A DNA stretch of 64,000 nucleotides from positions 15,504 to 79,503 of IMG/VR virus record IMGVR_UViG_3300043778_000098; one strand, 5' to 3'. A model generated the notes under the pieces. The model was not told the DNA's origin and did not search any database. It worked only from the letters and a program-made list of their open reading frames with translations. The translations under genes and the position numbers were made by a program. Positions 1-37,671 of this stretch are shown one piece after another. This stretch comes from a virus. Positions within the stretch are counted from its first letter, which is position 1; every line of letters starts with the position of its first letter.

Positions 1-2950
1 CGCCGGGCTCCGCCCGGCCCAGGCCCGCCCGGCCCAGGCCCGCAGGCCGTTCGGCGAGCTGGCGCCCCACGAGCAGCAGGCGGTGGCCCTCTACCACCGG
101 CAGATGCTCGAAGAGGGGAACGCCCCCCAGGGCAGCACCACCGGCGACTACCTGTACGAGCCCCGCCAGGAGCCCAGGGGCGACTTCATCAACCGCTACA
201 TGGACGCCGACGACGAGTTCAAGCGGGAGTACGGGCGCGGGGCGGCCGACTGGGAGGCCCACCACCAGGACACAGTGGCCCGCCACCCGATCCCCGCCTA
301 CCCGCCCGAGGGCCGGTGGCCGCTGATCGTCAGCGACGCCAACCCGAACTACATCGACGACGGCTACCACCGGATGCACTCCTACATGCGGGACGGCGCC
401 ACCGAGATCCCCACGATCAGGATGCACCCCAAGAGGGCCTCGAAGACGGCCGCCGCCGGGGACCCCGACTTTAGGGACCTCATCCCCAATTCCTGCACCC
501 AGTGCGGGAAGCCGGTGCACTACCGCCCCGGCGCCGGCAGGAACGGCACCTACCCGTGGCGGCACCGGCACCAGGCCATCGAAGACCACGCCGCCGTCCC
601 GTCCAACCCCGACGACAGGCGGCCGTCGCAGAACGCCACCTTCGGCGGCACCACCTGCCTGATGTGCCACGAGCCGGTGAAGATCAACCTGAACGCGCTG
701 GACACCGACACCGGCGGCTGGCACCACCACGACGGCATGAAGCGCGACCACCCCGCCATCCCGAAGGACGCCCGCGCCGTCTACGACGCCATCCCGGGCA
801 TCAGGGCGCAGCATGACCAGGCCCGCCAGCAGATCCGCGAGCACCTGCACCGGCAGTTCGAGCAGATGGAAGGCAGGCCGCTGCCCCGGCGCCCGAGAGG
901 CGACGAGGACCGGATGCCGCCCGACCCGTTCACGGCCAGACGCAAGAGGGCCAGGCGCCAGGCCGCCGGCCGCTTCCGCGAAGAGTTCACGCACTGCTCC
1001 AATTGCGGGGTCCCGCTGCTGGACGCCGACGACATCAGCGCCGCCGACTCGCCCGGCGACTGGTCGCACCACGGCTACCCGCACCTGTGCATGAACTGCG
1101 CCATCGGGCCGATCTCCGACGAGGGGACCATCCCCGGGACTCCCGGCAAGCCGCACCCGATCTTTCCGGGCAACAAGGGCGGCTATCACCTTCGCCCGGG
1201 GCTGGCAGGCGACCCCATGCCCACCGACCGCCTTCCCGAGAGCTACCGGAACTGGGAGCCGGGCGACGCGGTCCGGCAGTCCACGTCGAGCCGGAAGACG
1301 GCCTACGGGGAGACCCGCGTGCCGCCCCAGGTGGACACGCTGCGGATGGACGAGTGCCCCGTCTGCGGCGAGCACAACGTGTGGTCGGGCAGCCGGTGCC
1401 CGGTTTGCGGCTTCGTGGTGCCGCCCAGTGTCTTCCGCGATCCCGACACCGACAAGGCGCGGCAGGTGCGCGACCAGCTCGACGCCGACGGCGAGGTCAC
1501 CGAGGACCCGCAGGACCCCCAGGGCCAGGAAATGGGCGAGGAGGAGCAGATCGGCAGCGGCGATGACGCCGACGACCAGCTCACCCACCCGGACCAGATC
1601 GCCCCGGACGGGGTGCCGGTCGTGCAGGGCGAGGGCGGCCCGGTGCCCGGCGAGGAAGAGGGCGCGCAGGCGGGGCCGCCCCCCGAGGAAGAGGGCGAAG
1701 AGCAGGGCGAGCCCGGCGGGATCCCCGGCGACGCCGGCGAGGAGGGCGGCCCTCCCGTGGACCAGGAAGAGGAGCCAGGCGACGAGCTGGAGTGCCCCGC
1801 GTGCGGCACCACGTTCGAGACCGACGCCTACGCCCAGCCGGGCATGCCGTGCCCCGCCTGCGGCATGGCCAACCTCCACCCGATCGACGAGAGCGGCGAA
1901 GACGGGGAGTTCCCGCCCGATGACGGCGACCCTGACGGCGAGGAGGAGGAGGGCGACGGCCCCCAGAAGGATCAGGAAGACGATCCGTCCGCTCCGGGAG
2001 ACGAGAAGGAAGAGGACGAGGACATGCCAGCAAAGACAGGCGCCGCGCTCATGCAGGCCCAGGCGCGGAGGATCGCCGAGCAGTCGGCGATGATCGAGGC
2101 GCTGTCGGCCCAGCTGCGCTACCTCGCCTCGGCCGCCGGGGTCGGGCGGGAACTCGACGAGGTCGGCCGCAGGGTGATGCGGCGCCACGCCGACATCATG
2201 AACCCGGCCAGCCCGGTGCCCGACCCGCCCGAGGGGCCGCCGTCGGAGACCACCGAGCAGGCGCTGATGCCGGAGGCGATGGACGACCCGTCGCGCCCCG
2301 GCGCCACCCCGGGCGCCAACTCCCGGGTGCCGGCCGCGCAGACCACCACGGCGATCACCCCCGGCGTGGAGATGCAGACGCCCCCGGCGACCAACCTGGT
2401 CGACGTCACCGCGCCGGTCCAGGGCACCAACCCGTCGCAGGACGGCGGCGTGCCGATCGAGCAGCGCAGGATCGAGACCGATGTGCGCATTGACCCCGAC
2501 CCGCTGAAGGCGCACGGCCCCGGCATCGGCGGCCAGGGCGACAACGGCGCCGCGTTCCCGTGGATGCTGGACGCGCGGATGCCAGACCAGGGCGGCCAGC
2601 CCGGCCAGGGCCAGCGCGCGGCGTCGCTGCACTCGCAGCCGGGCGAGGCGGAATCCTCGCGGCGCACCTTCGGGGCGATCCGCCTGGCGAGGCTCCGGGT
2701 CCAGGCGGGCCTCGCCCAGGGCGACGAGCTGGCCGTAGCCGAGCGCATCGAGAGGGACGCCTCCCTGTCCACCGCGATGATCGAGCACGACATCTCCACT
2801 CTGGAGCAGGTCGGGGCTGTGGCCCGCCCCCAGGCCCCTCTCCAGCGGCAGGCGGCCCGCTCCGCCCCGTCGCTGGCGTCGGTGGGCGCGGCCAGCCAGT
2901 ACGCCCCGGCCGCCGCCGACGACCTCGACGGCTCGGACCTGTTCCTGTAG
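1..2950 (+). CDS. C-terminal part of capsid maturation protease/scaffold polyprotein (starts upstream of window)
   Basis: Frame is open from position 2. It has CxxC Zn ribbons, an acidic linker and KTA-type motifs (RKTAYGETRVPPQVDTLR), and lies upstream of the capsid genes. Confidence 0.6.
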   Translation, partial: AGLRPAQARPAQARRPFGELAPHEQQAVALYHRQMLEEGNAPQGSTTGDYLYEPRQEPRGDFINRYMDADDEFKREYGRGAADWEAHHQDTVARHPIPAYPPEGRWPLIVSDANPNYIDDGYHRMHSYMRDGATEIPTIRMHPKRASKTAAAGDPDFRDLIPNSCTQCGKPVHYRPGAGRNGTYPWRHRHQAIEDHAAVPSNPDDRRPSQNATFGGTTCLMCHEPVKINLNALDTDTGGWHHHDGMKRDHPAIPKDARAVYDAIPGIRAQHDQARQQIREHLHRQFEQMEGRPLPRRPRGDEDRMPPDPFTARRKRARRQAAGRFREEFTHCSNCGVPLLDADDISAADSPGDWSHHGYPHLCMNCAIGPISDEGTIPGTPGKPHPIFPGNKGGYHLRPGLAGDPMPTDRLPESYRNWEPGDAVRQSTSSRKTAYGETRVPPQVDTLRMDECPVCGEHNVWSGSRCPVCGFVVPPSVFRDPDTDKARQVRDQLDADGEVTEDPQDPQGQEMGEEEQIGSGDDADDQLTHPDQIAPDGVPVVQGEGGPVPGEEEGAQAGPPPEEEGEEQGEPGGIPGDAGEEGGPPVDQEEEPGDELECPACGTTFETDAYAQPGMPCPACGMANLHPIDESGEDGEFPPDDGDPDGEEEEGDGPQKDQEDDPSAPGDEKEEDEDMPAKTGAALMQAQARRIAEQSAMIEALSAQLRYLASAAGVGRELDEVGRRVMRRHADIMNPASPVPDPPEGPPSETTEQALMPEAMDDPSRPGATPGANSRVPAAQTTTAITPGVEMQTPPATNLVDVTAPVQGTNPSQDGGVPIEQRRIETDVRIDPDPLKAHGPGIGGQGDNGAAFPWMLDARMPDQGGQPGQGQRAASLHSQPGEAESSRRTFGAIRLARLRVQAGLAQGDELAVAERIERDASLSTAMIEHDISTLEQVGAVARPQAPLQRQAARSAPSLASVGAASQYAPAAADDLDGSDLFL

Positions 2951-15217: not shown

Positions 15218-15735
15218 CGCCGGAGCAGACCGAGACGCCGCCCTTCCGGCTGACGGCCCGCCTGTTCACCCCCGACCGCGTCACCGTCGAGGTGGCCGAC
15301 GTCCCTCTTCCCCCTCCTGCCACCGCAGGGAAGATCAGGGTCGCCATCCCCTACCCGGCGTCCGAGCCCGCCAGGATCGTGAGCCGGGTCGTCGTGATCA
15401 ACGAGAGCACCGGGGGAGTGGCGCGCGCGTCCGTCTGGCCGAGGGTCGTGGAACCCGGCGACATGCTGACCGTCGAGTTCGGGGCGGACAACGTCTTCGG
15501 CTTCCCCGGGTTCTCGCCGGACCGCCCGGACCAAGTCCTGGCCCCGGAGCGAACCTTCACCGGGCTGGAGGACGAACGGCTCGTCAGCGCGATCACCGCC
15601 AACCTCGCCAGCCTCAACGAGATCATCGCTGAGATGACCGCCAAGGTGTCCGGCGACCCCGAGTTCATCGCCATGGTCCGCCGGACGCTGCGCGATCACT
15701 CGCACGCGCTCGGCTTCAAGTTCGAGGGAGACTGA
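15214..15735 (+). CDS. Hypothetical protein
   Basis: ATGA overlap. Confidence 0.5.
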   Translation: MTPEQTETPPFRLTARLFTPDRVTVEVADVPLPPPATAGKIRVAIPYPASEPARIVSRVVVINESTGGVARASVWPRVVEPGDMLTVEFGADNVFGFPGFSPDRPDQVLAPERTFTGLEDERLVSAITANLASLNEIIAEMTAKVSGDPEFIAMVRRTLRDHSHALGFKFEGD

Positions 15736-23259: not shown

Positions 23260-23664
23260 CTAGCTAAACTCGCCGAGCAGCACCCGCATGATCGTCTCGC
23301 GGGTCAGCCACCCGCTCTCCTTGCCCGAGTAGAGCCGACTTCGGCGCTCGGCCTCCTCGGGCGGCAGCGGCCGGATGAACGAGCCGAGGTACCCGAGCAG
23401 TTCGAGGTCGGCCATGCCGTGGGCGTAGGCGCACCCGCCGTCCTGGCAGGCGTGATCGTCGCCAGTGGGCCAGTAGATCAGCGGGGTGCCATGGACGGGG
23501 CAGGTGCACCTCTCGTCACACCGATGCGGTTTGCCTGGCAGCGCCCTCCTCTTGCGCTCCGACGGCAGCATCGTCGGCAGCGGTGGAGGCGGGGATTCCT
23601 CCATGAGGTAGAGGCCGGCTATATCGTCCATGTCGGACCACTTAGGCTCGTCCGGAGTGCTCAT
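23260..23664 (-). CDS. Hypothetical protein
   Basis: ATGA overlap with the HNH gene. Confidence 0.5.
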   Translation of the reverse strand: MSTPDEPKWSDMDDIAGLYLMEESPPPPLPTMLPSERKRRALPGKPHRCDERCTCPVHGTPLIYWPTGDDHACQDGGCAYAHGMADLELLGYLGSFIRPLPPEEAERRSRLYSGKESGWLTRETIMRVLLGEFS

Positions 23665-24704
23665 GTCTTCCTTCTGACGTTAACGTTCTTCGACTGGTTG
23701 CACCCGAAGTGCGCTAGCTGGGCGTTCTCCAGGGAATGAGCGCCTCCACGGGCGACCGGGATGATGTGGTCGATGCTTTTGGACATGAGGTTGATCTTTC
23801 CAGTACCACGATCGCGATAGGGAAGGTCAGGATCGATCGGCACGAGGCAGAGCTGGCAGATACCGCTGTCGCGCCCCCAGATGAATTTCCTGTCCCTCTT
23901 GGAACTAAAAGTCCGAGGAGCGCGAACCCTGGCCTCAGGTCCGTCGGCCCACCGCTTTCCCGAGAGAACATCAGCCAGCCACCGCCGGTTGACATTGTAT
24001 TTCTTCGCTAGCGCAGTCTGCATTCCGTAGCGTCGCCCGGCTTCCTCGTATTCGGCGCGCACCATGTCGACGAACTGCCGGGTGGCCGTTGAAGCGTGAT
24101 GGCGCTCGCCGCGCCCCGGGCCGGTAGCCCTGCCTTTGGCCCTCATGTCGGCCGTGTTGCCTGCGGGGGTGTCCTTGAACCAGTGGCTCTCGTTGCAGCA
24201 CGGCGGGTTGTCGCAGCGATGGCAGACCATCGTCTCCTGCGTCATCTTGTCGTCCGGGTGGATCTGGTCCCAGGCCCATCGCTGCGCCCGGACCGTGACG
24301 TACTTCCCGTCCTGCGAGAAGGTGAGGATCGGGTAGCCGTCAGCGTCCCTGCCCTCTGTCCACGGGTGGCAGGCGTCTGCCCCGCTGCTGCGGTCGACTC
24401 GCGCTTCGTATTTCTCCCACGGGGAGTTTGAGCCGTCGCGGGGCTTGACGCGCCAGTGGGCCAGATTCTGGCACGACCTCAGGCCGCAGGTGTTGCGCAG
24501 CCCGTACCCGGCGGGGACGGGGCCGCGCGAGTTCCGCCACGCCCAGGCGTGCGCTCCGCCCTCTCGATGTCTGCCGTCGTCGTCAGTCCAGGAGAACTGG
24601 GCGTTGCCGTACTTGTCGATTTTCCCGCTCCAGCCGGTGCAGCCGTCGTCCTGGGGGACCAGCTTCTCCTCGTACCTTTGCCAAGGTTTCTTGCTAGTGC
24701 TCAT
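23661..24704 (-). CDS. Multi-domain HNH endonuclease
   Basis: Two His-Cys/HNH_3-like repeats (HRCDNPPCCN) and a C-terminal DHIIP...AHFGCN motif. Confidence 0.85.
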   Translation of the reverse strand: MSTSKKPWQRYEEKLVPQDDGCTGWSGKIDKYGNAQFSWTDDDGRHREGGAHAWAWRNSRGPVPAGYGLRNTCGLRSCQNLAHWRVKPRDGSNSPWEKYEARVDRSSGADACHPWTEGRDADGYPILTFSQDGKYVTVRAQRWAWDQIHPDDKMTQETMVCHRCDNPPCCNESHWFKDTPAGNTADMRAKGRATGPGRGERHHASTATRQFVDMVRAEYEEAGRRYGMQTALAKKYNVNRRWLADVLSGKRWADGPEARVRAPRTFSSKRDRKFIWGRDSGICQLCLVPIDPDLPYRDRGTGKINLMSKSIDHIIPVARGGAHSLENAQLAHFGCNQSKNVNVRRKT

Positions 24705-30474: not shown

Positions 30475-30528
30475 GGGTCGCCTCCTCACCGCTTCCGGGG
30501 GGAGGCCTCAACGGCGGGAACATCAGGG

Positions 30529-30602
30529 CGGGGCTGGCCAGATTCGAACTGGCGACAACCCGCTTAGGAGGCGGGTGCTCTATCCGGCTGAGCTACAGCT
30601 CC
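30529..30602 (-). tRNA. tRNA-Arg(CCT)
   Basis: cccgc-ctCCTaa-gcggg. Confidence 0.9.
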
Positions 30603-30603
30603 A

Positions 30604-30678
30604 TGGAGGCGGTAACCAGAGTCGAACTGGTGTGACGCGCTTTGCAGGCGCGGGCCTGGGCCGCTCGGCCATACCGCC
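30604..30678 (-). tRNA. tRNA-Cys(GCA)
   Basis: cgcgc-ctGCAaa-gcgcg; encoded CCA. Confidence 0.9.
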
Positions 30679-30890
30679 GGGTAACTGGGCGCCTCCCCGT
30701 CCTATCCGCCGGGCGGTGCCCGGTTCTCCCTTCGTCCGGCCGTTCATGGTTCGGGGACTGGTCAGGGGGCTGTTGTAACCGGGTTTGGATCCCCGGCGAC
30801 CTGGGAGGCGCAACCGCCCAGGCTACTCTCGGCAGGAGGCCGGCAGGGGGCTTAGCCCGAAGGCGGTGTAAGCCTGCTCGCCTGCCGGCC

Positions 30891-30965
30891 TGGCGTCCCC
30901 AACAGGACTCGAACCTGTGCGCGCGGCTCCGGAGGCCGCAGCTCTATCCGCTGAGCTATGAGGAC
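30891..30965 (-). tRNA. tRNA-Arg(CCG)
   Basis: gcggc-ctCCGga-gccgc. Confidence 0.9.
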
Positions 30966-31045
30966 CCGGCATAGCCAGGCAGGGACCGCGCAGACTCCAG
31001 GAGACCCTGCGGGCGGCGGGCGCCATTTAGTTCCCTGCCCGGCCG

Positions 31046-31126
31046 AGGCGGCACCAGGTGTCGAGCCTGGTCTGTCGGAGACAACGGTTTTACGGACCGC
31101 CGGGCGTGCCGCCGCCCACTACCGCC
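31046..31126 (-). tRNA. Atypical tRNA-Tyr(GTA)
   Basis: gcggt-ccGTAaa-accgt; variable arm; altered T loop; U73. Confidence 0.6.
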
Positions 31127-31233
31127 ATGTAGACGATGAGCACACCGGGCGCGAGGCCGGCGATCTCCAGCTCCGCGAGAGCGTTAAATCCGGCTGCGCT
31201 GGCGTGCTGCGTATTGCACTATGCTCACCGCCG

Positions 31234-31306
31234 AGGGTCGCACGGGATTCGAACCCGTCAATAACGGCCTCACAAACCGCTGCCTCAGCCACTTGGCTCG
31301 CGACCC
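31234..31306 (-). tRNA. tRNA-His(GTG)
   Basis: gcggt-ttGTGag-gccgt. Confidence 0.8.
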
Positions 31307-31308
31307 GG

Positions 31309-31380
31309 TGCCCGATGGGGGACTCGAACCCCCGGCATCCTCGGTGTGGGCGAGGCGCTCTCCCGCTGAGCTAACCGGAC
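31309..31380 (-). tRNA. tRNA-Val(CAC)
   Basis: cctcg-ccCACac-cgagg. Confidence 0.85.
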
Positions 31381-31490
31381 ATGGGGCAGGGAAAGGGACT
31401 ACTCGGCCGGCCTCGCCTTTCGTCCCCGGGCGTTCCTTCCCGACGGCTGACCACGTGTTTCGGCACGCTCCGGCCTTACTCCCTGCCTTG

Positions 31491-31562
31491 TGCGCCCGGA
31501 GGGAATCGAACCCCCACACACGGTTCCGTAGACCGCAGCTCTATCCGTTGAGCTACGGGCGC
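31491..31562 (-). tRNA. tRNA-Arg(ACG)
   Basis: gcggt-ctACGga-accgt. Confidence 0.9.
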
Positions 31563-31597
31563 GTACTGGGGCGGCCCGGCTGCGCAGCCGGGCCGCT

Positions 31598-31675
31598 AAG
31601 GGCAGGCGGGACTCGAACCCGCATGCGTGGTCTGACATACCGCGCGTCAACGTCTGCCGATTTCGCCACTACCCT
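31598..31675 (-). ncRNA. tRNA-like RNA with Leu-type D arm and ambiguous anticodon (GTC?)
   Basis: Acceptor stem and canonical T arm present; irregular middle section. Confidence 0.55.
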
Positions 31676-31679
31676 CCCG

Positions 31680-31751
31680 TGGGCGTACCTGGATTTGAAC
31701 CAGGGACCTCTTCCGTGTCGGGGAAACGCGCTTCCGCTGCGCCACACGCCC
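31680..31751 (-). tRNA. tRNA-Val(GAC)
   Basis: tttcc-ccGACac-ggaag. Confidence 0.85.
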
Positions 31752-31930
31752 ATCGATCGCCGCCTGTTCAGTCTCAGGTCCGTCCCGTGGGATGCGAGCC
31801 CCGGTTGCGCCGGGGAGTCGCGGCGATCATGCCCGGGGATTCGGAGAACCTTGTCCCGGATCGATCCAGGAACGCGCCGCCCGGTCGGCGCATATGCAGG
31901 ACTCTAGCAACAAAAGCTGTCTTCGTCCAG

Positions 31931-32006
31931 CGGTCGAGACGGGATTCGAACCCGCGATGCCCTCCTTGACGGGGAGGTGGGGACGGCCAGGCTCCCCTAC
32001 ACGACC
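31931..32006 (-). tRNA. tRNA-Asp(GTC)
   Basis: cctcc-ccGTCaa-ggagg. Confidence 0.85.
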
Positions 32007-32094
32007 ATTGACGCCGATATTTCGGGTCCCCGGTTTCCCGTGCTATCGGAGCACGGGACCTGAGGCCGCGTTCTTCGCCTCGGCGCGGGCGAAG

Positions 32095-32166
32095 CTCCGG
32101 AGTTCAGACTCGAACTGAAAACCCTCCGCTTAACGGGCGGACGCTCTGCCATTGAGCTACACCGGA
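32095..32166 (-). tRNA. tRNA-Asn(GTT)
   Basis: tccgc-ccGTTaa-gcgga. Confidence 0.85.
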
Positions 32167-32341
32167 TCGCCCCCTCTCGCGGCCCCGCAGCGAGGGGGAG
32201 GCTGCGCTCAGGCGCCGGAGTGACGGCTCCGGCCGGGCCTTCCCTTTCGAGGCGTCGGCAGGGTGGGCCGACTGGAACCTCCCGCTGGCGAACAAGACCC
32301 AATACGACCCGGGCGTAAAGGAGCCAGCCGGGAATGCCTCG

Positions 32342-32409
32342 CGGACGAGGCGGGACTCGAACCCGCCGGCTCCCCGAGGGGTCTCGGTTGCGCCCGTGCC
32401 TACTCGCCT
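32342..32409 (-). ncRNA. tRNA-like RNA with 4-nt anticodon loop
   Basis: Intact T arm and acceptor stem; ccgag-accc-ctcgg. Confidence 0.5.
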
Positions 32410-32410
32410 T

Positions 32411-32487
32411 TGGTGGCGGGGGCAGGATTCGAACCTGCGTTCTTCGGATTATGAGTCCGACGAGCTACCGAACTGCTCCACCCCGCG
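32411..32487 (-). tRNA. Initiator tRNA-fMet(CAT)
   Basis: CGCGGGG 5' end; C1:A72 mismatch; encoded CCA. Confidence 0.9.
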
Positions 32488-32519
32488 CCGCCAGCCCAGC
32501 CTAGCATCGTCTGGCTCTG

Positions 32520-32592
32520 CTCCCCCAGCGAGATTCGAACTCGCGCCCTCGCCTTGAAGGGGCGGTGACCTGGGCCGCTAGTCAATGGGGGC
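32520..32592 (-). tRNA. tRNA-Glu(TTC)
   Basis: ccgcc-ccTTCaa-ggcga. Confidence 0.8.
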
Positions 32593-32671
32593 GGGCTGCT
32601 CACCGGGAGGGCGGATGCCACAGACTGTGCTCGCACCCCCTGGCCAGGGAGCCCCTCCCGGTGAGCAGACG

Positions 32672-32746
32672 TAGCCCCGACCGGCTTCGAACCGGCGTCG
32701 CCGCCTTGAGAGGGCGGTGTCCTGAGCCTGACTAGACGACAGGGCC
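32672..32746 (-). tRNA. tRNA-Glu(CTC)
   Basis: ccgcc-ctCTCaa-ggcgg. Confidence 0.9.
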
Positions 32747-32833
32747 GTGGTCCGGCGGCTTGACCGACCGCACGGGGAGGGCCCGGGGCTAGCACCCGGG
32801 TCCACGGAGCCCGTCTTAAGTGGGCCAGTCTCG

Positions 32834-32908
32834 CGCGCCGAGAGGGATTCGAACCCCCAGCACAGGGCTTAGAAGACCCTGGGTCTGTCCGATTGACTGT
32901 ACCGGCGC
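32834..32908 (-). tRNA. tRNA-Arg(TCT)
   Basis: agggt-ctTCTaa-gccct. Confidence 0.8.
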
Positions 32909-32911
32909 TCA

Positions 32912-33035
32912 GTTCGGTGCTGGTGTGCTGCTACGCCGAAGGCCTCAGGTCTTTCACCCGGCGTCGGATTCGGCCGGCCCCTATCGCCACTCCTTAGAGG
33001 ATGGCTGCCTTTAAGCCAACCTTCCAGCACCGGAC
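32912..33035 (-). ncRNA. ncRNA mimicking 23S rRNA H43-H44 (L11-binding domain)
   Basis: GCUGGAAGGUUGGCUUAAAGGCAGCCAUCCUCUAAGGAGUG...CGUAGCAGCACACCAGC, closed by a 12-bp stem. Confidence 0.75.
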
Positions 33036-33241
33036 GGGCCGCCCGGATCCCCGGCCGTCCGCTCACAGGTTAGCAGCGCTGCCCTCTGGGCTACCGGCGC
33101 CTGTCATCCCACCACCGGAGGGCGGGGAACCTGAACGCCAGTCTGCACCCCCACTCGCCGCGAGCGTGCCATTCGCCGCCCTCCCGGAGGGGGATCTGGT
33201 CCAGGGCCTCGTCCAGCAGCCAGAGCGCGATGCGCATGCTG

Positions 33242-33313
33242 TGCCTCCCCTGGGACTCGAACCCAGAATCCACGGATTAAAGGTCCGCTGCATTGTCATT
33301 GTGCTAGAGAGGC
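33242..33313 (-). tRNA. tRNA-Lys(TTT)
   Basis: gcgga-ccTTTaa-tccgt. Confidence 0.8.
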
Positions 33314-33316
33314 AGG

Positions 33317-33390
33317 TAGCGGTAAAGGGAATCGAACCCCTGGCCTCTCGAATTATGAGTTCGGCGCTCTGCCATCTGAGCTATACCGCC
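33317..33390 (-). tRNA. tRNA-Met(CAT), elongator (or Ile2)
   Basis: ccgaa-ctCATaa-ttcga. Confidence 0.8.
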
Positions 33391-33483
33391 GCGAATGGCC
33401 CTCGGACGTCCCTCGCAGCACCCCGGGCCGGGGCCCGGACCGCCGACCTGCCCGTCCGGTCGTACCCTCGCCCGACGGCCAAG

Positions 33484-33557
33484 TGGGCAACCATGGAGTT
33501 GAACCATGCGGCTAACCGCTTATCAGACGGTCCCCTTCACCGGTTGGGTAGCTGCCC
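33484..33557 (-). tRNA. tRNA-Ile(GAT)
   Basis: accgt-ctGATaa-gcggt. Confidence 0.8.
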
Positions 33558-33589
33558 TTATCGTTTCGCCCGGTACGCCGGGCGGTGAG

Positions 33590-33679
33590 CAGAGGGAGTG
33601 GGTCTCGAACCCACACGGGAGTTACCCCTGACCGCTTTCGAGGCGGCTGCCGGTAGGCCGAAGCTCGGCTTATCCCTCC
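33590..33679 (-). tRNA. tRNA-Ser(CGA)
   Basis: gccgc-ctCGAaa-gcggt; long variable arm. Confidence 0.8.
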
Positions 33680-33683
33680 AGGG

Positions 33684-33746
33684 TGGAACGTACGGGAGTC
33701 GGACCCGCCTTGCGCGCGCTGCACTGAGTCCGGTGCAATACGGCCC
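33684..33746 (-). ncRNA. Mini tRNA-like RNA lacking an anticodon arm
   Basis: Acceptor, D-like and T-like stems only. Confidence 0.45.
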
Positions 33747-34016
33747 ATGAGTGAAAACGACGAGATCAGGATGACCCTCACCGTCCGGGGGACCCGCGCG
33801 CCGCGCCTGGCCGCGCAGGCGGTCGTCAACCACGCGAAGCGCTCGCTGTTCCTGGTCGACGCGAAGCCCGGGGAGTTCGCCGCCGAGATCGAGATCTCCG
33901 TGGCGGGCGCCCCGTCGGAGCGCTCCCGGATCGACGAGCACGGGACCTGGCAGAGGGAGCGGGATTCGAACCCGCGAGGACCGGAGCCCCACGTCATTAG
34001 CGGTGACGCGCCATAG
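33747..34016 (+). CDS. Hypothetical protein antisense to the tRNA array
   Basis: Coding-like codon bias; 3' end overlaps tRNA-Ser(GCT). Confidence 0.45.
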   Translation: MSENDEIRMTLTVRGTRAPRLAAQAVVNHAKRSLFLVDAKPGEFAAEIEISVAGAPSERSRIDEHGTWQRERDSNPRGPEPHVISGDAP

Positions 34017-34036
34017 GCCAGCTAGGCGACCCCTCC
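33948..34036 (-). tRNA. tRNA-Ser(GCT)
   Basis: cgtca-ccGCTaa-tgacg; encoded CCA. Confidence 0.85.
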
Positions 34037-34141
34037 ATGACGCTGCTCCCCCGAGACGCCATTCACGGGGTGCGAGATGACCGGAAGCATCCTGGCGTCG
34101 GAGCCCGTTCACTCGGGGCCGTCGCAGCGCTGGCGGCCTTG

Positions 34142-34224
34142 TGGGCGAGGAGGGACTCGAACCCTCACGTCCTCGCGGACACCGGCACCTGAGGCCGGCG
34201 CGTATGCCGTTTCGCCACACGCCC
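34142..34224 (-). tRNA. tRNA-Leu(CAG)
   Basis: ccggc-ctCAGgt-gccgg. Confidence 0.9.
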
Positions 34225-34286
34225 ATCGCCCCGGCCGAGGCCGGGGATGCCGCACGGCGGCGCCTCCCGTGGGCGCTGCGGCAGGG

Positions 34287-34358
34287 AGCGGACAACGGGA
34301 CTCGAACCCGCGACGTCGTGCCTGGGAAGCACGTGCTCTGCCACTGAGCTACGTCCGC
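34287..34358 (-). tRNA. tRNA-Gly(CCC)
   Basis: cgtgc-ttCCCag-gcacg. Confidence 0.9.
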
Positions 34359-34418
34359 ATGCTCGGGCGCCCCTAGGAACGCTTACCCCGCGAGGGGGTG
34401 GCCGCCGAGCCGGCGCGG

Positions 34419-34492
34419 AGCGGCTGAGGGGACTCGAACCCCCGACCTAGACGTTGGCAACGTCTCGCGCTAGCCAGCTGCGCCACAACCGC
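34419..34492 (-). tRNA. tRNA-Gly(GCC)
   Basis: agacg-ttGCCaa-cgtct. Confidence 0.9.
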
Positions 34493-34493
34493 G

Positions 34494-34566
34494 AGCCCCA
34501 TTACGGAATCGAACCGTAGACCTCGGCCCTACCATGGCCGCGCTCTGCCGACTGAGCTAAAAGGGC
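34494..34566 (-). tRNA. tRNA-Thr(GGT)
   Basis: cggcc-atGGTag-ggccg. Confidence 0.9.
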
Positions 34567-34576
34567 GTGGATCCCG

Positions 34577-34647
34577 CTCCGGGAGCAGGGGTCGAACCTA
34601 CGTGACAGCCACCAAAGGGCTGCGTCCTGCCATTAGACGATCCCGGA
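34577..34647 (-). tRNA. tRNA-Gln(TTG)
   Basis: cagcc-ctTTGgt-ggctg. Confidence 0.85.
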
Positions 34648-34651
34648 CCGG

Positions 34652-34725
34652 AGCCGCCTGCCGGTTTCGAACCGGCGGCCTTCCGCTTACAAGGCGGTCG
34701 CTACTGCCATCTGAGCTAAGGCGGC
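34652..34725 (-). tRNA. tRNA-Thr(TGT)
   Basis: accgc-ctTGTaa-gcgga. Confidence 0.85.
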
Positions 34726-34729
34726 GAAA

Positions 34730-34893
34730 TGGAGCCGGGCCGGGGGCCTTGGCCGTACGCACCACGCGAAAGGTGCCCCCAACCGGATCGGACGGGCGTC
34801 CCCGCTACCCGCTTCCGGCGTCGCGCTCGCCCAACATCACGGGAGGCGCTCTATGCCAGGAGAATTCAGGCACCTTGAGCTACGGGAGGCTCC
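34730..34893 (-). ncRNA. About 160-nt structured RNA with tRNA-like 5' part
   Basis: ggagcc/ggctcc closing stem; TAGCTC...GAGC D stem with an inserted hairpin. Confidence 0.4.
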
Positions 34894-34933
34894 TGATCCC
34901 CCCGGCGGGCAGCCCAGGCCCGCATCTCCTCCC

Positions 34934-35021
34934 TGGTGTCCGAGACGGGACTTGAACCCGCACGCCCCTCGCGGGGCACCAGCACCTCAAGCTGGGGCGT
35001 CTGCCATTCCGCCACTCAGAC
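34934..35021 (-). tRNA. tRNA-Leu(GAG)
   Basis: ccagc-ttGAGgt-gctgg; encoded CCA. Confidence 0.9.
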
Positions 35022-35109
35022 GTAACCCGGCGCACCACCTCGCGACCAAGGCCCGCGACATGCATGCGCCGGAAGGGAACCCAGACGAAGCCGGCCTCTG
35101 GTTCCCGTG

Positions 35110-35182
35110 AGCCCCGAAACGGATTCGAACCGGTGACCTGCGCATTACGGGTGCGCCGCTCTTCCGACTGAGCTACCGGGGC
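35110..35182 (-). tRNA. tRNA-Thr(CGT)
   Basis: gcgca-ccCGTaa-tgcgc. Confidence 0.85.
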
Positions 35183-35231
35183 GGGAGGCTAACGTGGCGC
35201 TGGACTGCGCCTGAAGTCGCGTTAGCCGAAG

Positions 35232-35306
35232 CTGGGGTACCTGGGATCGAACCAGGGAACTCCGGGGCCAGAACCCGGCGACTTTGCCAACGTCATCCAT
35301 ACCCCA
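35232..35306 (-). tRNA. tRNA-Gln(CTG)
   Basis: ccggg-ttCTGgc-cccgg. Confidence 0.8.
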
Positions 35307-35311
35307 TTGAG

Positions 35312-35389
35312 TGGGCGAGGCAGGATTTGAACCCGCAACCCAACCCGTTTTGAGCGGGCCAGCTCTGCCGATATTGGACTCACTCGCCC
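35312..35389 (-). tRNA. tRNA-Leu(CAA) with short variable region
   Basis: gcccg-ctCAAaa-cgggt. Confidence 0.75.
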
Positions 35390-35423
35390 GTGCTCTACCT
35401 GACTCTGCCGAACTTTACTGGCG

Positions 35424-35496
35424 TGCGCCGCGAGGGACTTGAACCCCCAACTCCCGACTTAAGAGGACGGTACTCTGCCAATTGAGTTACCGGCGC
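35424..35496 (-). tRNA. tRNA-Lys(CTT)
   Basis: ccgtc-ctCTTaa-gtcgg. Confidence 0.85.
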
Positions 35497-35497
35497 G

Positions 35498-35571
35498 TGG
35501 AGCGGATGACCGGAATCGGACCGGCGTGGCCAGCTTGGAAGGCTGGTGCTCTGCCACTGAGCCACATCCGC
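35498..35571 (-). tRNA. tRNA-Gly(TCC)
   Basis: ccagc-ctTCCaa-gctgg; encoded CCA. Confidence 0.85.
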
Positions 35572-35855
35572 ATTAGCCTCCGGGGTCCTCGTCAGAGGCT
35601 CCTGGGCCGTCTTTGCGTGACGGCAGGTGGCGTGGCCGAGGCCGCCCGGAGGCGCCTTCCCGCCAGGCCCTTTACCACCAGGGGGAATCGAACCCATGGG
35701 GCCTGACTTGCGGGGTAGCGCTACCCCGCCGCGCGGCCCCGGGGACCGAACCCGGCCTTTCCCTCAGCGAGGAGGTAATCGGGCCCACCAGGGCGGCCGA
35801 TCGCCCCCGGGCCGCGTACCACGGGGGCGCCAGGCGGCGCCGTACGCCGCCGCCG

Positions 35856-35929
35856 TGGTCATGCCCTGGATCGAACAGGAGACCTGCCGCTTTTCAGGCG
35901 ACCGCTCGTTCCGACTGAGCTACATGACC
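35856..35929 (-). tRNA. tRNA-Phe(GAA)
   Basis: gtcgc-ctGAAaa-gcggc. Confidence 0.85.
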
Positions 35930-35993
35930 ATGACGAGGACCCCCGGCAGGGCGTGGCTCTTTCTGCCGCCGCACTTAGGCCATTGAGGTCCAG

Positions 35994-36108
35994 TGGCAAG
36001 GAGGGGGTCGAACCCTCGCTCGGATCAATTCGCCCGGTTCCGTGCCGCCCTCAACGGGCGGTGGTGCCGGGCAGCTTATCACCAGTGCACGCCGCACACC
36101 GCTTGCCG
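35994..36108 (-). ncRNA. tRNA-like RNA with greatly extended anticodon arm
   Basis: ggcaag/cttgcc acceptor stem; T arm; interrupted hairpin of about 65 nt. Confidence 0.55.
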
Positions 36109-36159
36109 CACACAGATAGCTGGCCTGTGCTCCAGCAGACCGCCGGCCGGACGGTCTCG

Positions 36160-36233
36160 TCGGGAAGGCCGGATTCGAACCGACGGCCTCTCGCACCCGA
36201 AGCGAGCGCGCTACCAAGCTGCGCCACTCCCCG
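36160..36233 (-). tRNA. tRNA-Pro(CGG)
   Basis: ctcgc-ttCGGgt-gcgag. Confidence 0.9.
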
Positions 36234-36236
36234 ATC

Positions 36237-36374
36237 GGGGTGCTCTTCCGCTGAGCTACCGTTGGCTTCCGCCGCCGGGCAGGATTCGAACCTGCGACCT
36301 CCCCTTGGCCAAGCTCTGTCCGCTGAGTTACCGGGCATAACCCCGGGCAGGATTCGAACCTGCGACCTCTGGCC
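36237..36374 (-). ncRNA. Two tandem circularly permuted tRNA-like units (YrlA-like topology)
   Basis: Each unit reads stem, T arm, loop-closed acceptor stem, D arm, stem. Confidence 0.65.
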
Positions 36375-36376
36375 GG

Positions 36377-36450
36377 TCGGAGTACCTGGACTTGAACCAG
36401 GGACCTCACGCTCCCCGAGCGTGCGCGCTGCCAACCTGCGCCATACTCCG
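36377..36450 (-). tRNA. tRNA-Pro(GGG)
   Basis: cacgc-tcGGGga-gcgtg. Confidence 0.85.
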
Positions 36451-36556
36451 GTGCGGCGCCGGGGTCGTGTCGCGATCACGCCCCGGGCACCTGCGCGATT
36501 CCGCCGGTCCAGCCGGTTTTCGCCTCGTCGCGCTATCGATACGCGGCCACTGCGTC

Positions 36557-36622
36557 TCCGGTTACCCCGAATCGAACGGGGGGCACCCCTTTCGAGGGCG
36601 CTGGTGGCCAGCCCTACCCGGA
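36557..36622 (-). ncRNA. Short tRNA-like RNA
   Basis: Acceptor stem; 3-nt D loop; ccccg-ttcgatt-cgggg T arm. Confidence 0.45.
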
Positions 36623-36637
36623 GCCGTGCGCCGAACG

Positions 36638-36710
36638 TCGGGGTGGCCGGTCTCGAACCGGCGACCTCCAGGTCCCAAACCTGGCGCGCTGCCAACTGCG
36701 CTACGCCCCG
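36638..36710 (-). tRNA. tRNA-Pro(TGG)
   Basis: ccagg-ttTGGga-cctgg. Confidence 0.9.
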
Positions 36711-36803
36711 TGGAGTGGTGAGTTGCTCCGGCCCGGGCGCTCGGATTCGCGCCGGGTGATGCCGGTTGCCTTGCGCCAGGCTGCCGTGCCTCGGCTCACC
36801 ACG

Positions 36804-36877
36804 TGGAGAAGATCGGATTCGAACCGACGACGCCCCGGTTGCGGGCCGGGTGCTCTACCAGACTGAGCTACATCCCC
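36804..36877 (-). tRNA. tRNA-Ala(CGC)
   Basis: cccgg-ccCGCaa-ccggg. Confidence 0.85.
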
Positions 36878-37129
36878 ATGACGCCAATGTGCCTGCGGTG
36901 CCCGCCGCTATCGGGACGGGCCGCGCTCCCCTACGGTTTACGAAAGCCTCCCGGCCACCGCAGGCACGGCGCTTGCCACTCGGACGCGGCCGATCCCGCG
37001 TCGCCGGGCGCTTATGTCCGGGGTACCCTCCCGGTCCGGGACAACCAGAAGCCGCAGGCACGATGTTCCACTAGCCTGCCGTCCCCGCTCCGCCGGGATC
37101 ATCTACGTTTCGCCCGGCTTATCCCAAAG

Positions 37130-37202
37130 TGGAGCCTAGGAGATTTGAACTCCTGACCTTCTGCATGCCATGCAGACGCGCTACCAGCTGCGCCAAGACC
37201 CC
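37130..37202 (-). tRNA. tRNA-Ala(GGC)
   Basis: tctgc-atGGCat-gcaga. Confidence 0.9.
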
Positions 37203-37598
37203 ATTGGCGGGCCCGCCCCTCCCGCGTACCGGGTAGGACGGGCCCGGCCTCCCGTCCCCCTCCGGCCGGCTGGCCCCCGATGCGAACAGGGGCGCGGCGA
37301 CACGATGGAGGAAGACGGAAGACTGTCTCCGTCGGCTCTGCGGCGTGGACCGGTTCATCCCACGGCGAGCCGGGGAAGTTCGTGCCGCACGAGCATGCAG
37401 AGCCGACGGAAGATCAAGCTGGCACGGTGCCCGGTACAGGAACGCCTTGCGGTGTCCCCAGCCTTTAGCGGCTGCTGCTCCCCGGGAGTAGCTGCATTGT
37501 CTTTCACCGTGCCTGCGGCGGGTTGGCTTCCCGCCGCGATGTTCCCGCTATTGAGGTTTCACGTAGCAGGCGCCGAGGCGCCGGGCCCGTAGGGCTTG

Positions 37599-37671
37599 CA
37601 GGGACGGAGGGACTCGAACCCCCGGCACGCAGGTTTGGAATCTGCTGTTCTGGCCTCTGAACTACGCCCCT
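37599..37671 (-). tRNA. tRNA-Trp(CCA)
   Basis: gcaga-ttCCAaa-cctgc. Confidence 0.85.

Follow-up and report, generated by a model that had tools for sequence, protein, structure and literature searches.

The DNA analysed here is a window of 64,000 nucleotides (positions 15,504 to 79,503 of IMG/VR virus record IMGVR_UViG_3300043778_000098), which forms part of a viral contig of 79.5 kb with a GC content of about 70% and an estimated completeness of about 50%. The window contains a large array of tRNA genes, and between two of these, tRNA-Lys(UUU) and tRNA-Arg(UCU), lies a block that holds a 49-codon open reading frame (ORF), a remnant of a tRNA-Arg gene, a GC-rich hairpin and a non-coding RNA element of 124 nt (Table 1). 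This last element, which is located on the minus strand (33035-32912), is the subject of this work. It copies helices 43 and 44 (H43/H44) of 23S ribosomal RNA (rRNA; 1051-1108 in the numbering of Escherichia coli, which we use for rRNA positions), a branch of 52 nt is inserted within its H44, and tRNA-Arg(UCU) starts 3 nt downstream of it.

Table 1. Features at and around the RNA element. Coordinates are those of the window, except for the last two rows, which give positions in the source contig (L399). GAC, GTPase-associated centre; GC3, GC content at third codon positions.
Feature	Coordinates	Strand	Basis or remark
Array of 39 tRNA genes hosting the element	30526..37671	-	all genes on the minus strand
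tRNA-Lys(UUU), upstream boundary of the block	33241..33313	-	tRNA call
Block of 332 nt between tRNA-Lys(UUU) and tRNA-Arg(UCU), holds the element	32909..33240	-	missing from close relatives
ORF of 49 codons, putative coding	33087..33236	-	very high GC3; within the inserted block
Remnant of a tRNA-Arg 5' end, 15 nt, GCGCCGGUAGCCCAG	33086..33100	-	comparison with the tRNA-Arg of relatives
GC-rich hairpin directly upstream of the element	33032..33060	-	seen via a chance alignment to a miRNA model
Predicted GAC-mimic RNA, whole element	32912..33035	-	covariance-model match spans 32917-33030; Rfam LSU local alignment to H43/H44
Closing helix, 5' strand (equivalent of the top of H42, 1044-1055)	33024..33035	-	pairs with 32912-32923; family covariation at 1049-1055/1104-1110
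H43 stem and 9-nt loop (1057-1081)	32998..33022	-	A1067 = 33012; A1068 = 33011; G1070 = 33009
1082-1086 turn, C1082-G1086 pair	32993..32997	-	pair covaries across the family
H44, 5' strand, G1087 A1088 G1089 U1090	32989..32992	-	mapping of the sequence to E. coli numbering
Insert between 1090 and 1091	32937..32988	-	exactly 52 nt; 3-bp basal helix GGC/GCC; ends in linker UUCG (family consensus UUUG)
Upper H44 and loop: G-C1092 GUAGCA G1099-C1100, A1101, C1102, A1103	32924..32936	-	A1095 = 32932; A1101 family-specific
Closing helix, 3' strand (1104-1115)	32912..32923	-	pairing and family covariation
tRNA-Arg(UCU), 3 nt 3' of the element	32833..32908	-	tRNA call
Divergent uL10 gene (rplJ)	2448-2909		PF00466 48.3 bits (cut-off 22.8); NCBIfam L10 66.9 bits, below the equivalog cut-off
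Full-length bL12 gene (rplL), 125 aa	2906-3283		TIGR00855 115.2 bits (cut-off 84.4)

The initial annotation of this locus quoted a sequence string, which is present verbatim on the minus strand, and likened it to the 58-nt uL11/thiostrepton domain of 23S rRNA, part of the GTPase-associated centre (GAC). This likeness is borne out by an Rfam large-subunit (LSU) rRNA alignment to H43/H44 and by a covariance model of the family to which the element belongs. In the Rfam alignment, positions 1178-1235 of the model LSU_rRNA_archaea match H43/H44 of the element with 20.3 bits (E=4.5e-4; 381 nt searched), a score that falls below the gathering score of 50, and about 60 nt replace the 8-nt H44 loop. 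This weak match is the sole overlap in Rfam 15, which was checked for a prior description and holds no family for the element: neither a tRNA nor a transfer-messenger RNA (tmRNA) is reported there, no L10 leader or other ribosomal protein leader matches the element at E values up to 10, and the LSU models detect no 23S sequence flanking it. The covariance model (R1) was built from a seed of 12 family members, this copy among them, and phage DNA was searched with it. The model scores this copy at 92.9 bits (E ~5e-22) as the single match in the window, and family members outside the seed reach 50-107 bits.

The element shares with the ribosomal domain its helices and their order, the H43 loop bar two bases, and the GUA..A-type H44 loop. 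The bases that support the tertiary fold are all present (U1060/A1088, G1071, C1072, 1082:1086, G1091-C1100 and C1092-G1099), and the purine-A mismatch at 1056.1103 is kept as A1056.A1103. All 19 modelled pairs of this copy are Watson-Crick, as are all five pairs of 1051-1055/1104-1108, and the 12-nt closing strands pair in this way throughout, bar one C.A. The compensatory changes that had been noted in the closing helix thus hold in the sense that pairing persists (GUGCUGG/CCAGCAC). The H43 loop reads UUAAAGGCA, compared with UUAGAAGCA in rRNA (1065-1073); its stem is intact and A1067 is retained, with A at 1068 and G at 1070, where G and A are usual (G1068A and A1070G). The same loop variant, UUAAAGGCA, occurs in 8 other viral contigs. 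On the other hand, the element differs from the rRNA domain in several respects. It is a free-standing unit of about 124 nt in a phage tRNA array, whereas the rRNA measures 2.9 kb; it has a 52-nt branch at 1090/1091 and a UUYG linker, whereas the H44 hairpin of rRNA is continuous; its U1090-A1101 pair is Watson-Crick, whereas rRNA has a U at 1101; and a plain stem of 9-12 bp stands in the place of H42. An insert of about 52 nt with a branched structure had been annotated. Its length proved to be exactly 52 nt (32988-32937); the branching, which is suggested by a constrained thermodynamic fold alone, is uncertain. Judged from its sequence, the element is a stand-alone RNA that is predicted to fold like the GAC, comprising the top of H42, H43 and H44.

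The element belongs to a large family with no fewer than 150 distinct copies, which came from cultured and uncultured phages and from genome assemblies. A 17-nt pattern of the H43 loop matched more than 118 viral contigs, and 73 distinct full elements were kept after removal of chance matches in coding DNA and of two true 23S fragments (L061 and L072). Position 1068 is A in 10/73 of these elements and position 1070 is G in 13/73. A scan anchored on the 3' half added about 40 members with natural variants of the H43 loop, in which position 1061 is U, A, G or C, position 1065 is U or C, and A1067 is replaced by G in about seven. A 3' signature specific to the family was present in 88 bacterial and archaeal assembly contigs; when 80 of these loci were searched with the model, 42 matches were obtained in about 39 loci, most of them on contigs of metagenome-assembled genomes (MAGs) and a few in isolates such as Flintibacter muris. 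Two of the model-confirmed copies (L344 and L366) are located on short contigs binned to archaeal MAGs (Methanosarcinales and Thermoplasmatales), which may be mis-binned phage DNA or copies carried by archaeal viruses. Full copies are also present in unannotated gaps of the genomes of the cultured phages Pseudomonas pf16, Xanthomonas XacN1 and Serratia BF, and blastn alone points to the other Rak2-like giant phages, Aeromonas phage 4_4572 and Paenibacillus phage Pd_22F. The inserts elsewhere in the family measure 58-356 nt and occupy the same position.

Many family members are neighbours of tRNA genes. A tRNA gene lies within 500 nt of 38 of the 73 elements, on the same strand in all 38 cases, and many of the gaps are 0-6 nt; the pf16 copy, for example, is located between tRNA-Asn and tRNA-Pro. 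The copies of XacN1 and Serratia BF lie between protein genes; that of XacN1 (L125, AP018399 150358-150589), with no tRNA beside it, immediately follows a gene whose annotation is 2'-5' RNA ligase. At four other loci (L035, L044, L090 and L099) a tmRNA gene is found within a few kb of the element, and tRNAs, tmRNA and GAC mimic there constitute a single translation-RNA island. Rfam scans of 13 and 15 family loci reported only tRNA, tmRNA and the LSU GAC block, and a full-text literature search found no paper that describes such an RNA. As far as we could tell, the family is an undescribed kind of viral RNA.

The initial annotation further held that the element is under selection for its structure and is not a decaying rRNA fragment, and the covariation observed across the family upholds this claim. 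The pair statistics were taken from columns that the search patterns left free. The closing helix uses all four Watson-Crick pairs, which at 1051:1108 occur as GC (18), AU (18), UA (17) and CG (8); position 1058 is paired with 1080 in 52/52 copies, using four pair types; and the 1082:1086 pair, a hallmark of the GAC, covaries as UA (24), CG (20) and AU (4). The pair 1056.1103, likewise as in rRNA, is always a purine-A mismatch and never Watson-Crick. In a model-based alignment of 79 distinct sequences, 93.6% of the cells were paired compared with 75.5% after shuffling, 279 double-change cells were observed compared with 90, and none of 500 shuffles reached the observed values. When the 3' partners were shifted by 1-3 columns, pairing fell to 25-51%. 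A compensatory change from G1062-C1076 to A-U was present in copies that had been found via their 3' half alone. Both GAC loops are retained and nearly fixed in the family.

In addition to this covariation, the family shares derived features that rRNA lacks. Every family copy seen has A1101, which lies opposite U1090, whereas the two true 23S matches have a U at 1101; the insert at 1090/1091 is seated on a basal helix, which covaries among compact copies; and a UUUG linker precedes G-C1092, the linker of this copy, UUCG, having a C where 66/73 copies have U. The combination of helix covariation and shared derived features excludes a decaying rRNA fragment. The inserts themselves are diverse. 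A motif resembling the sarcin-ricin loop (SRL) is found in long inserts, for example as AGUACGAGAGGAGC in L110 and as AGUACGGGAGGAAA in L045, and overall in 2-3/73 inserts; the insert of this copy does not contain it. Other modules, GGUAAGG (27/73) and GCACCCCGUAA, are common to many members. The idea that the inserts are copies of other 23S segments was considered and rejected: a supposed likeness of GUGCGAAAUGCU to E. coli ~1190 was unsupported, and the Rfam LSU models match the GAC block only.

The genome in which this copy resides is that of a myovirus, with genes for a major head protein, a tail sheath and a baseplate wedge protein. Among cultured phages, the cluster C mycobacteriophages and the Gordonia phages RedWattleHog and Stormageddon are closest to it, with capsid identities of about 59%. 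Myrna and RedWattleHog do not have a copy, and no laboratory actinophage carrying the element was found. Since the bL12 protein encoded by the phage is closest to proteins of Actinomycetota (53-58% identity) and the source DNA occurs in soil metagenomes, the host is most likely a soil actinobacterium. Closer relatives, with capsid identities of 80-98% to this phage, form a clade of uncultured phages. When 20 of the larger contigs of this clade were searched with the model and with a loose 15-nt core pattern, the RNA was found only in G012, an incomplete contig, and all 12 complete genomes among them were without it. A further complete relative, G001, carries the RNA, which brings the number of clade carriers to three when this phage is counted. 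The three copies occupy three different slots of a largely syntenic array, namely between tRNA-Lys(UUU) and tRNA-Arg(UCU) in this phage, between tRNA-Pro(CGG) and tRNA-Phe(GAA) in G012, and between a tRNA(CAU) and tRNA-Ile in G001, and they differ in their inserts and closing stems. The spacing between tRNA-Lys(UUU) and tRNA-Arg(UCU) is 3-8 nt in four relatives (G006, G007, G008 and G009), compared with 332 nt here. In runs X2 and X4 the two flanks of this junction are found on different contigs, the loose ends of which overlap and give the sequence of a tRNA-Arg 5' part; because these junctions are unbridged, we did not count them.

The element is thus a recently acquired accessory in this phage. 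The most similar element known to us, that of L046, has the same closing stem and a similar proximal part of the insert, and is carried by a phage that is unrelated by its capsid. The empty Lys-Arg junctions, the three slots and the likeness to L046 indicate that the RNA behaves like the surrounding tRNA genes, that is, as a small cassette subject to gain, loss and exchange. The first 9 nt of the tRNA-Arg remnant within the inserted block (GCGCCGGUAGCCCAG) repeat the start of the intact tRNA-Arg gene, and the G012 copy is preceded by an apparent 3' half of a tRNA. Some further features of the region may be mentioned here. The stop codon of the 49-codon ORF overlaps the 15-nt remnant. ARAGORN calls a tRNA-Gln(CUG) of 101 nt at window positions 35730-35830 (minus strand) that the Rfam tRNA model does not report at its gathering score, and which may be an intron-bearing, degenerate or false tRNA. 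A scan of the array for sigma-70 promoters and terminators gave no minus-strand signal, such a scan being uninformative for an actinophage. A few kb from the array lies an HNH endonuclease gene (PF01844; window 23661-24704, minus strand); in other phages, the amplification of anti-defence tRNA loci has been tied to homing endonucleases (PMC13096335).

The same contig encodes two ribosomal stalk proteins, a divergent uL10 and a full-length bL12. Their genes, rplJ and rplL, directly precede a portal-like ORF of 760 aa and are located about 12 kb upstream of the start of the window. Among 50 contigs that carry the RNA, uL10 was found in one, which is this contig, and bL12 scored above the cut-off in four, again including this contig; TROVE/Ro60 did so in 4/50 carriers as well. 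A uL11 domain was found in none of the 50 carriers, 19 of which are at least 90% complete, and the control search matched 14/14 genomes. Since the carriers do not have a uL11 of their own, any uL11 bound by the RNA would be that of the host. No bL12 was found in 23 relatives of this phage, the closest bL12 proteins being encoded by metagenomic contigs (61-89% identity). The five contigs with full-length relatives of this bL12 do not encode uL10, and the RNA is present in one of 15 other bL12-encoding phage contigs. The IMG/VR collection holds no close relative of the uL10, and phage-encoded uL10 appears to be very rare in viruses; in their survey of viral ribosomal proteins, Mizuno et al. 2019 (PMC6375957) rank bL12 as the second most common one and mention uL10 solely as part of the stalk. 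No RNA resembling the L10 leader was found upstream of the phage rplJ with Rfam at E values up to 10. In a complex prediction, the uL10 with two bL12 N-terminal domains scored 0.34 (best control 0.01; partner pLDDT at least 61; contact agreement between runs at least 71%), which is weak support, because a pass with a score of 0.60 or less is wrong more often than not if the pair is not likely beforehand, and the pass of this textbook pair may reflect memory. Of 78 solved complexes, 51 reached the calibration mark of the method, as did two of 108 mismatched pairs. The presence of the RNA together with uL10 and bL12 is a striking single co-occurrence, and there is no general association; no other genome seen so far combines the RNA with both phage proteins.

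What might a stand-alone copy of the GAC do for a phage? The isolated 1051-1108 domain binds uL11 tightly, and thiostrepton too; uL11 is required for the activation of RelA, and uL10 binds mainly H42. Munishkin and Wool are said to have reported in 1997 that EF-G binds in vitro to oligonucleotides that mimic the GAC domain and the sarcin-ricin loop. We propose that the element serves as an off-ribosome replica of the GAC, to which host uL11 binds and which draws a ligand away from that site, a proposal whose chances we rate as even. It would be transcribed together with the tRNA array and be cut out of the transcript by RNase P and other tRNA-processing enzymes, with RNase P processing of the 5' end of tRNA-Arg setting the 3' end of the element. 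Away from the ribosome, the RNA would act as a replica of the site, and host uL11 would be its first and most probable ligand, since the isolated 58-nt domain is a known high-affinity site for uL11 and the carriers have no uL11 of their own. The RNA, or an RNA-uL11 particle, would then divert something that recognises the ribosomal GAC. Candidates are uL11 itself, and with it RelA activation and the stringent response, GAC-directed toxins such as Tre23, translational GTPases, or another factor or defence effector. Because the family is spread over phages that infect many bacterial phyla, its ligand should be a universal one, and as H42 is reduced to a plain stem, the element should lack most determinants for uL10. 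Phage tRNAs have been shown to replace or outcompete tRNAs that are hit by host defences (PMC10264068, PMC11555353), and the fast gain and loss of the element in the company of such tRNAs leans to a conditional, conflict-related benefit.

Several observations weigh against this proposal. No RNA run was found to contain the source DNA. In the case of this copy, the fold constrained to the GAC structure has an energy of -39.7 kcal/mol compared with -54.1 kcal/mol for a competing fold, in which 1058-1066 pair with the insert, so that the unconstrained fold is not that of the GAC; with a minimum free energy z-score of -0.91 relative to shuffled sequences, thermodynamics gives no support for the GAC fold here. 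The outermost 4 nt of the closing helix are also part of the GC-rich hairpin directly upstream, which would compete with the outer stem; this hairpin could also be a processing or stability signal. Either the insert within H44 or the two substitutions in the H43 loop (G1068A and A1070G) could alter recognition by proteins. In several family members A1067 is a G, which argues against thiostrepton as a general ligand. Finally, the element is dispensable for close relatives, so that any benefit is conditional.

Other explanations must be considered alongside the proposed diversion of a GAC ligand. The RNA might be a decoy or bait for agents that attack the GAC, such as ADP-ribosyltransferase toxins of the Tre23 type, other rRNA-directed effectors or thiopeptides, which the free RNA, with or without uL11, would absorb, thereby sparing the ribosomes. 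Toxins that modify the GAC do exist, Tre23 ADP-ribosylating H44 at 1095-1098 (PMC8661411), and both GAC loops are kept in the family, a few members of which add the SRL-like motif in their inserts (L110, AGUACGAGAGGAGC; 2-3/73). The patchy recent gain and the placement in tRNA arrays, moreover, resemble those of counter-defence cargo (PMC10264068, PMC11555353). However, such a decoy would have to compete with tens of thousands of ribosomes, this copy is without the SRL-like motif, the family occurs in phages of Gram-negative hosts, which thiopeptides enter poorly, and some copies have A1067G. Our literature searches also turned up no anti-phage system aimed at the GAC, and we know of none. We therefore regard this explanation as unlikely. 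Still less probable, in our view, is that the RNA is the base of a small stalk particle, on which phage uL10 and bL12 and host uL11 assemble off the ribosome, the bL12 C-terminal domains capturing or pre-loading translational GTPases or baiting stalk sensors, or that the RNA buffers the phage stalk proteins before they replace those of the host. It is attractive that the contig encodes uL10 and a full-length bL12 beside the portal-like gene, that both are absent from the 23 relatives and that the single uL10 among the carriers is found here; ribosomal uL10 is generally known to bind this region of rRNA, and the weak complex prediction points the same way. Nevertheless, the co-occurrence concerns a single genome, the other two carriers of the clade are without bL12, and the low numbers given above, for bL12 among carriers (4/50), for the RNA among other bL12-encoding contigs (1/15) and for uL10 among the five contigs with full-length bL12 (none), do not favour a joint function. 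Moreover, the plain stem replaces H42, where most uL10 contacts are made, the stalk genes are 45 kb away from the RNA, and rplJ is not preceded by an L10-leader-like RNA.

The location of many copies raises the question whether the element acts in cis, as a module for folding, spacing or stability that aids the processing of neighbouring tRNAs or that protects the 3' end of a small upstream ORF, in which case the likeness to rRNA would be secondary. It adjoins tRNAs by a few nt in many phages, and here it follows the 49-codon ORF and ends 3 nt before tRNA-Arg. A generic spacer, however, needs neither near-invariant GAC loops nor covariation at 1082:1086, 35 of the 73 copies have no tRNA within 500 nt, those of XacN1 and Serratia BF lie between protein genes, and the relatives process the same Lys-Arg pair without the RNA, all of which makes a role in cis improbable to a high degree. 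A captured piece of host 23S rDNA that hitch-hikes in tRNA arrays without a function would agree with the gain of the element by insertion alongside tRNA fragments and with its dispensability in relatives. Yet the helices of the element covary and its loops are fixed over at least 150 copies in unrelated phages, these copies share A1101, the UUUG linker and the 1090/1091 insert, which are derived and absent from rRNA, and no 23S sequence flanks the element; we consider this explanation almost certainly wrong.

The element can be compared with other RNAs that imitate or copy parts of the translation machinery. Like the phage tRNAs that counter host defences (PMC10264068, PMC11555353), it occupies the niche of the tRNA array, is gained and lost in a patchy manner and is a copy of a host translation RNA; unlike a copied tRNA, which can function in translation, an rRNA domain of 124 nt cannot take the place of its counterpart within a ribosome and is limited to binding or absorbing ligands. 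The leaders of ribosomal protein mRNAs, such as the L10 leader (RF00557), which is bound by L10(L12)4, are likewise extra-ribosomal RNAs that imitate the rRNA site of a ribosomal protein, and this phage encodes uL10 and bL12. However, these leaders are cis-regulatory parts of mRNAs and imitate the H42 site of uL10, not H43/H44, whereas the element is found among tRNAs, 45 kb from rplJ, and Rfam reports no leader either at the element or before rplJ. The proposed logic is shared with sponge RNAs such as 6S RNA, which mimics an open promoter, and CsrB/RsmZ, in that an abundant small RNA imitates a nucleic-acid ligand and titrates a protein; fold, target and origin are different. To our knowledge, no RNA sponge of a ribosomal protein or of the GAC has been described. 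Genes for tRNAs, tmRNA and a few ribosomal proteins are known from viruses, and we know of no virus that carries pieces of rRNA.

The copy described here adds an actinobacteriophage member to the family and clearly documents the movement of the RNA, as a small cassette, into tRNA arrays. Cultured carriers exist in Pseudomonas phage pf16, Xanthomonas phage XacN1 and Serratia phage BF, so that the family is open to direct testing, and the candidate ligands are standard reagents. If it were true that this phage forms a stalk particle off the ribosome, that particle would be the first ribosomal sub-assembly of RNA and protein encoded by a virus. A widespread, selected, stand-alone copy of the ribosomal factor-binding and uL11 site would constitute a new class of viral RNA, and a mimic of the GAC would represent a new way in which phages interfere with translation control, the stringent response or translation-directed immunity.

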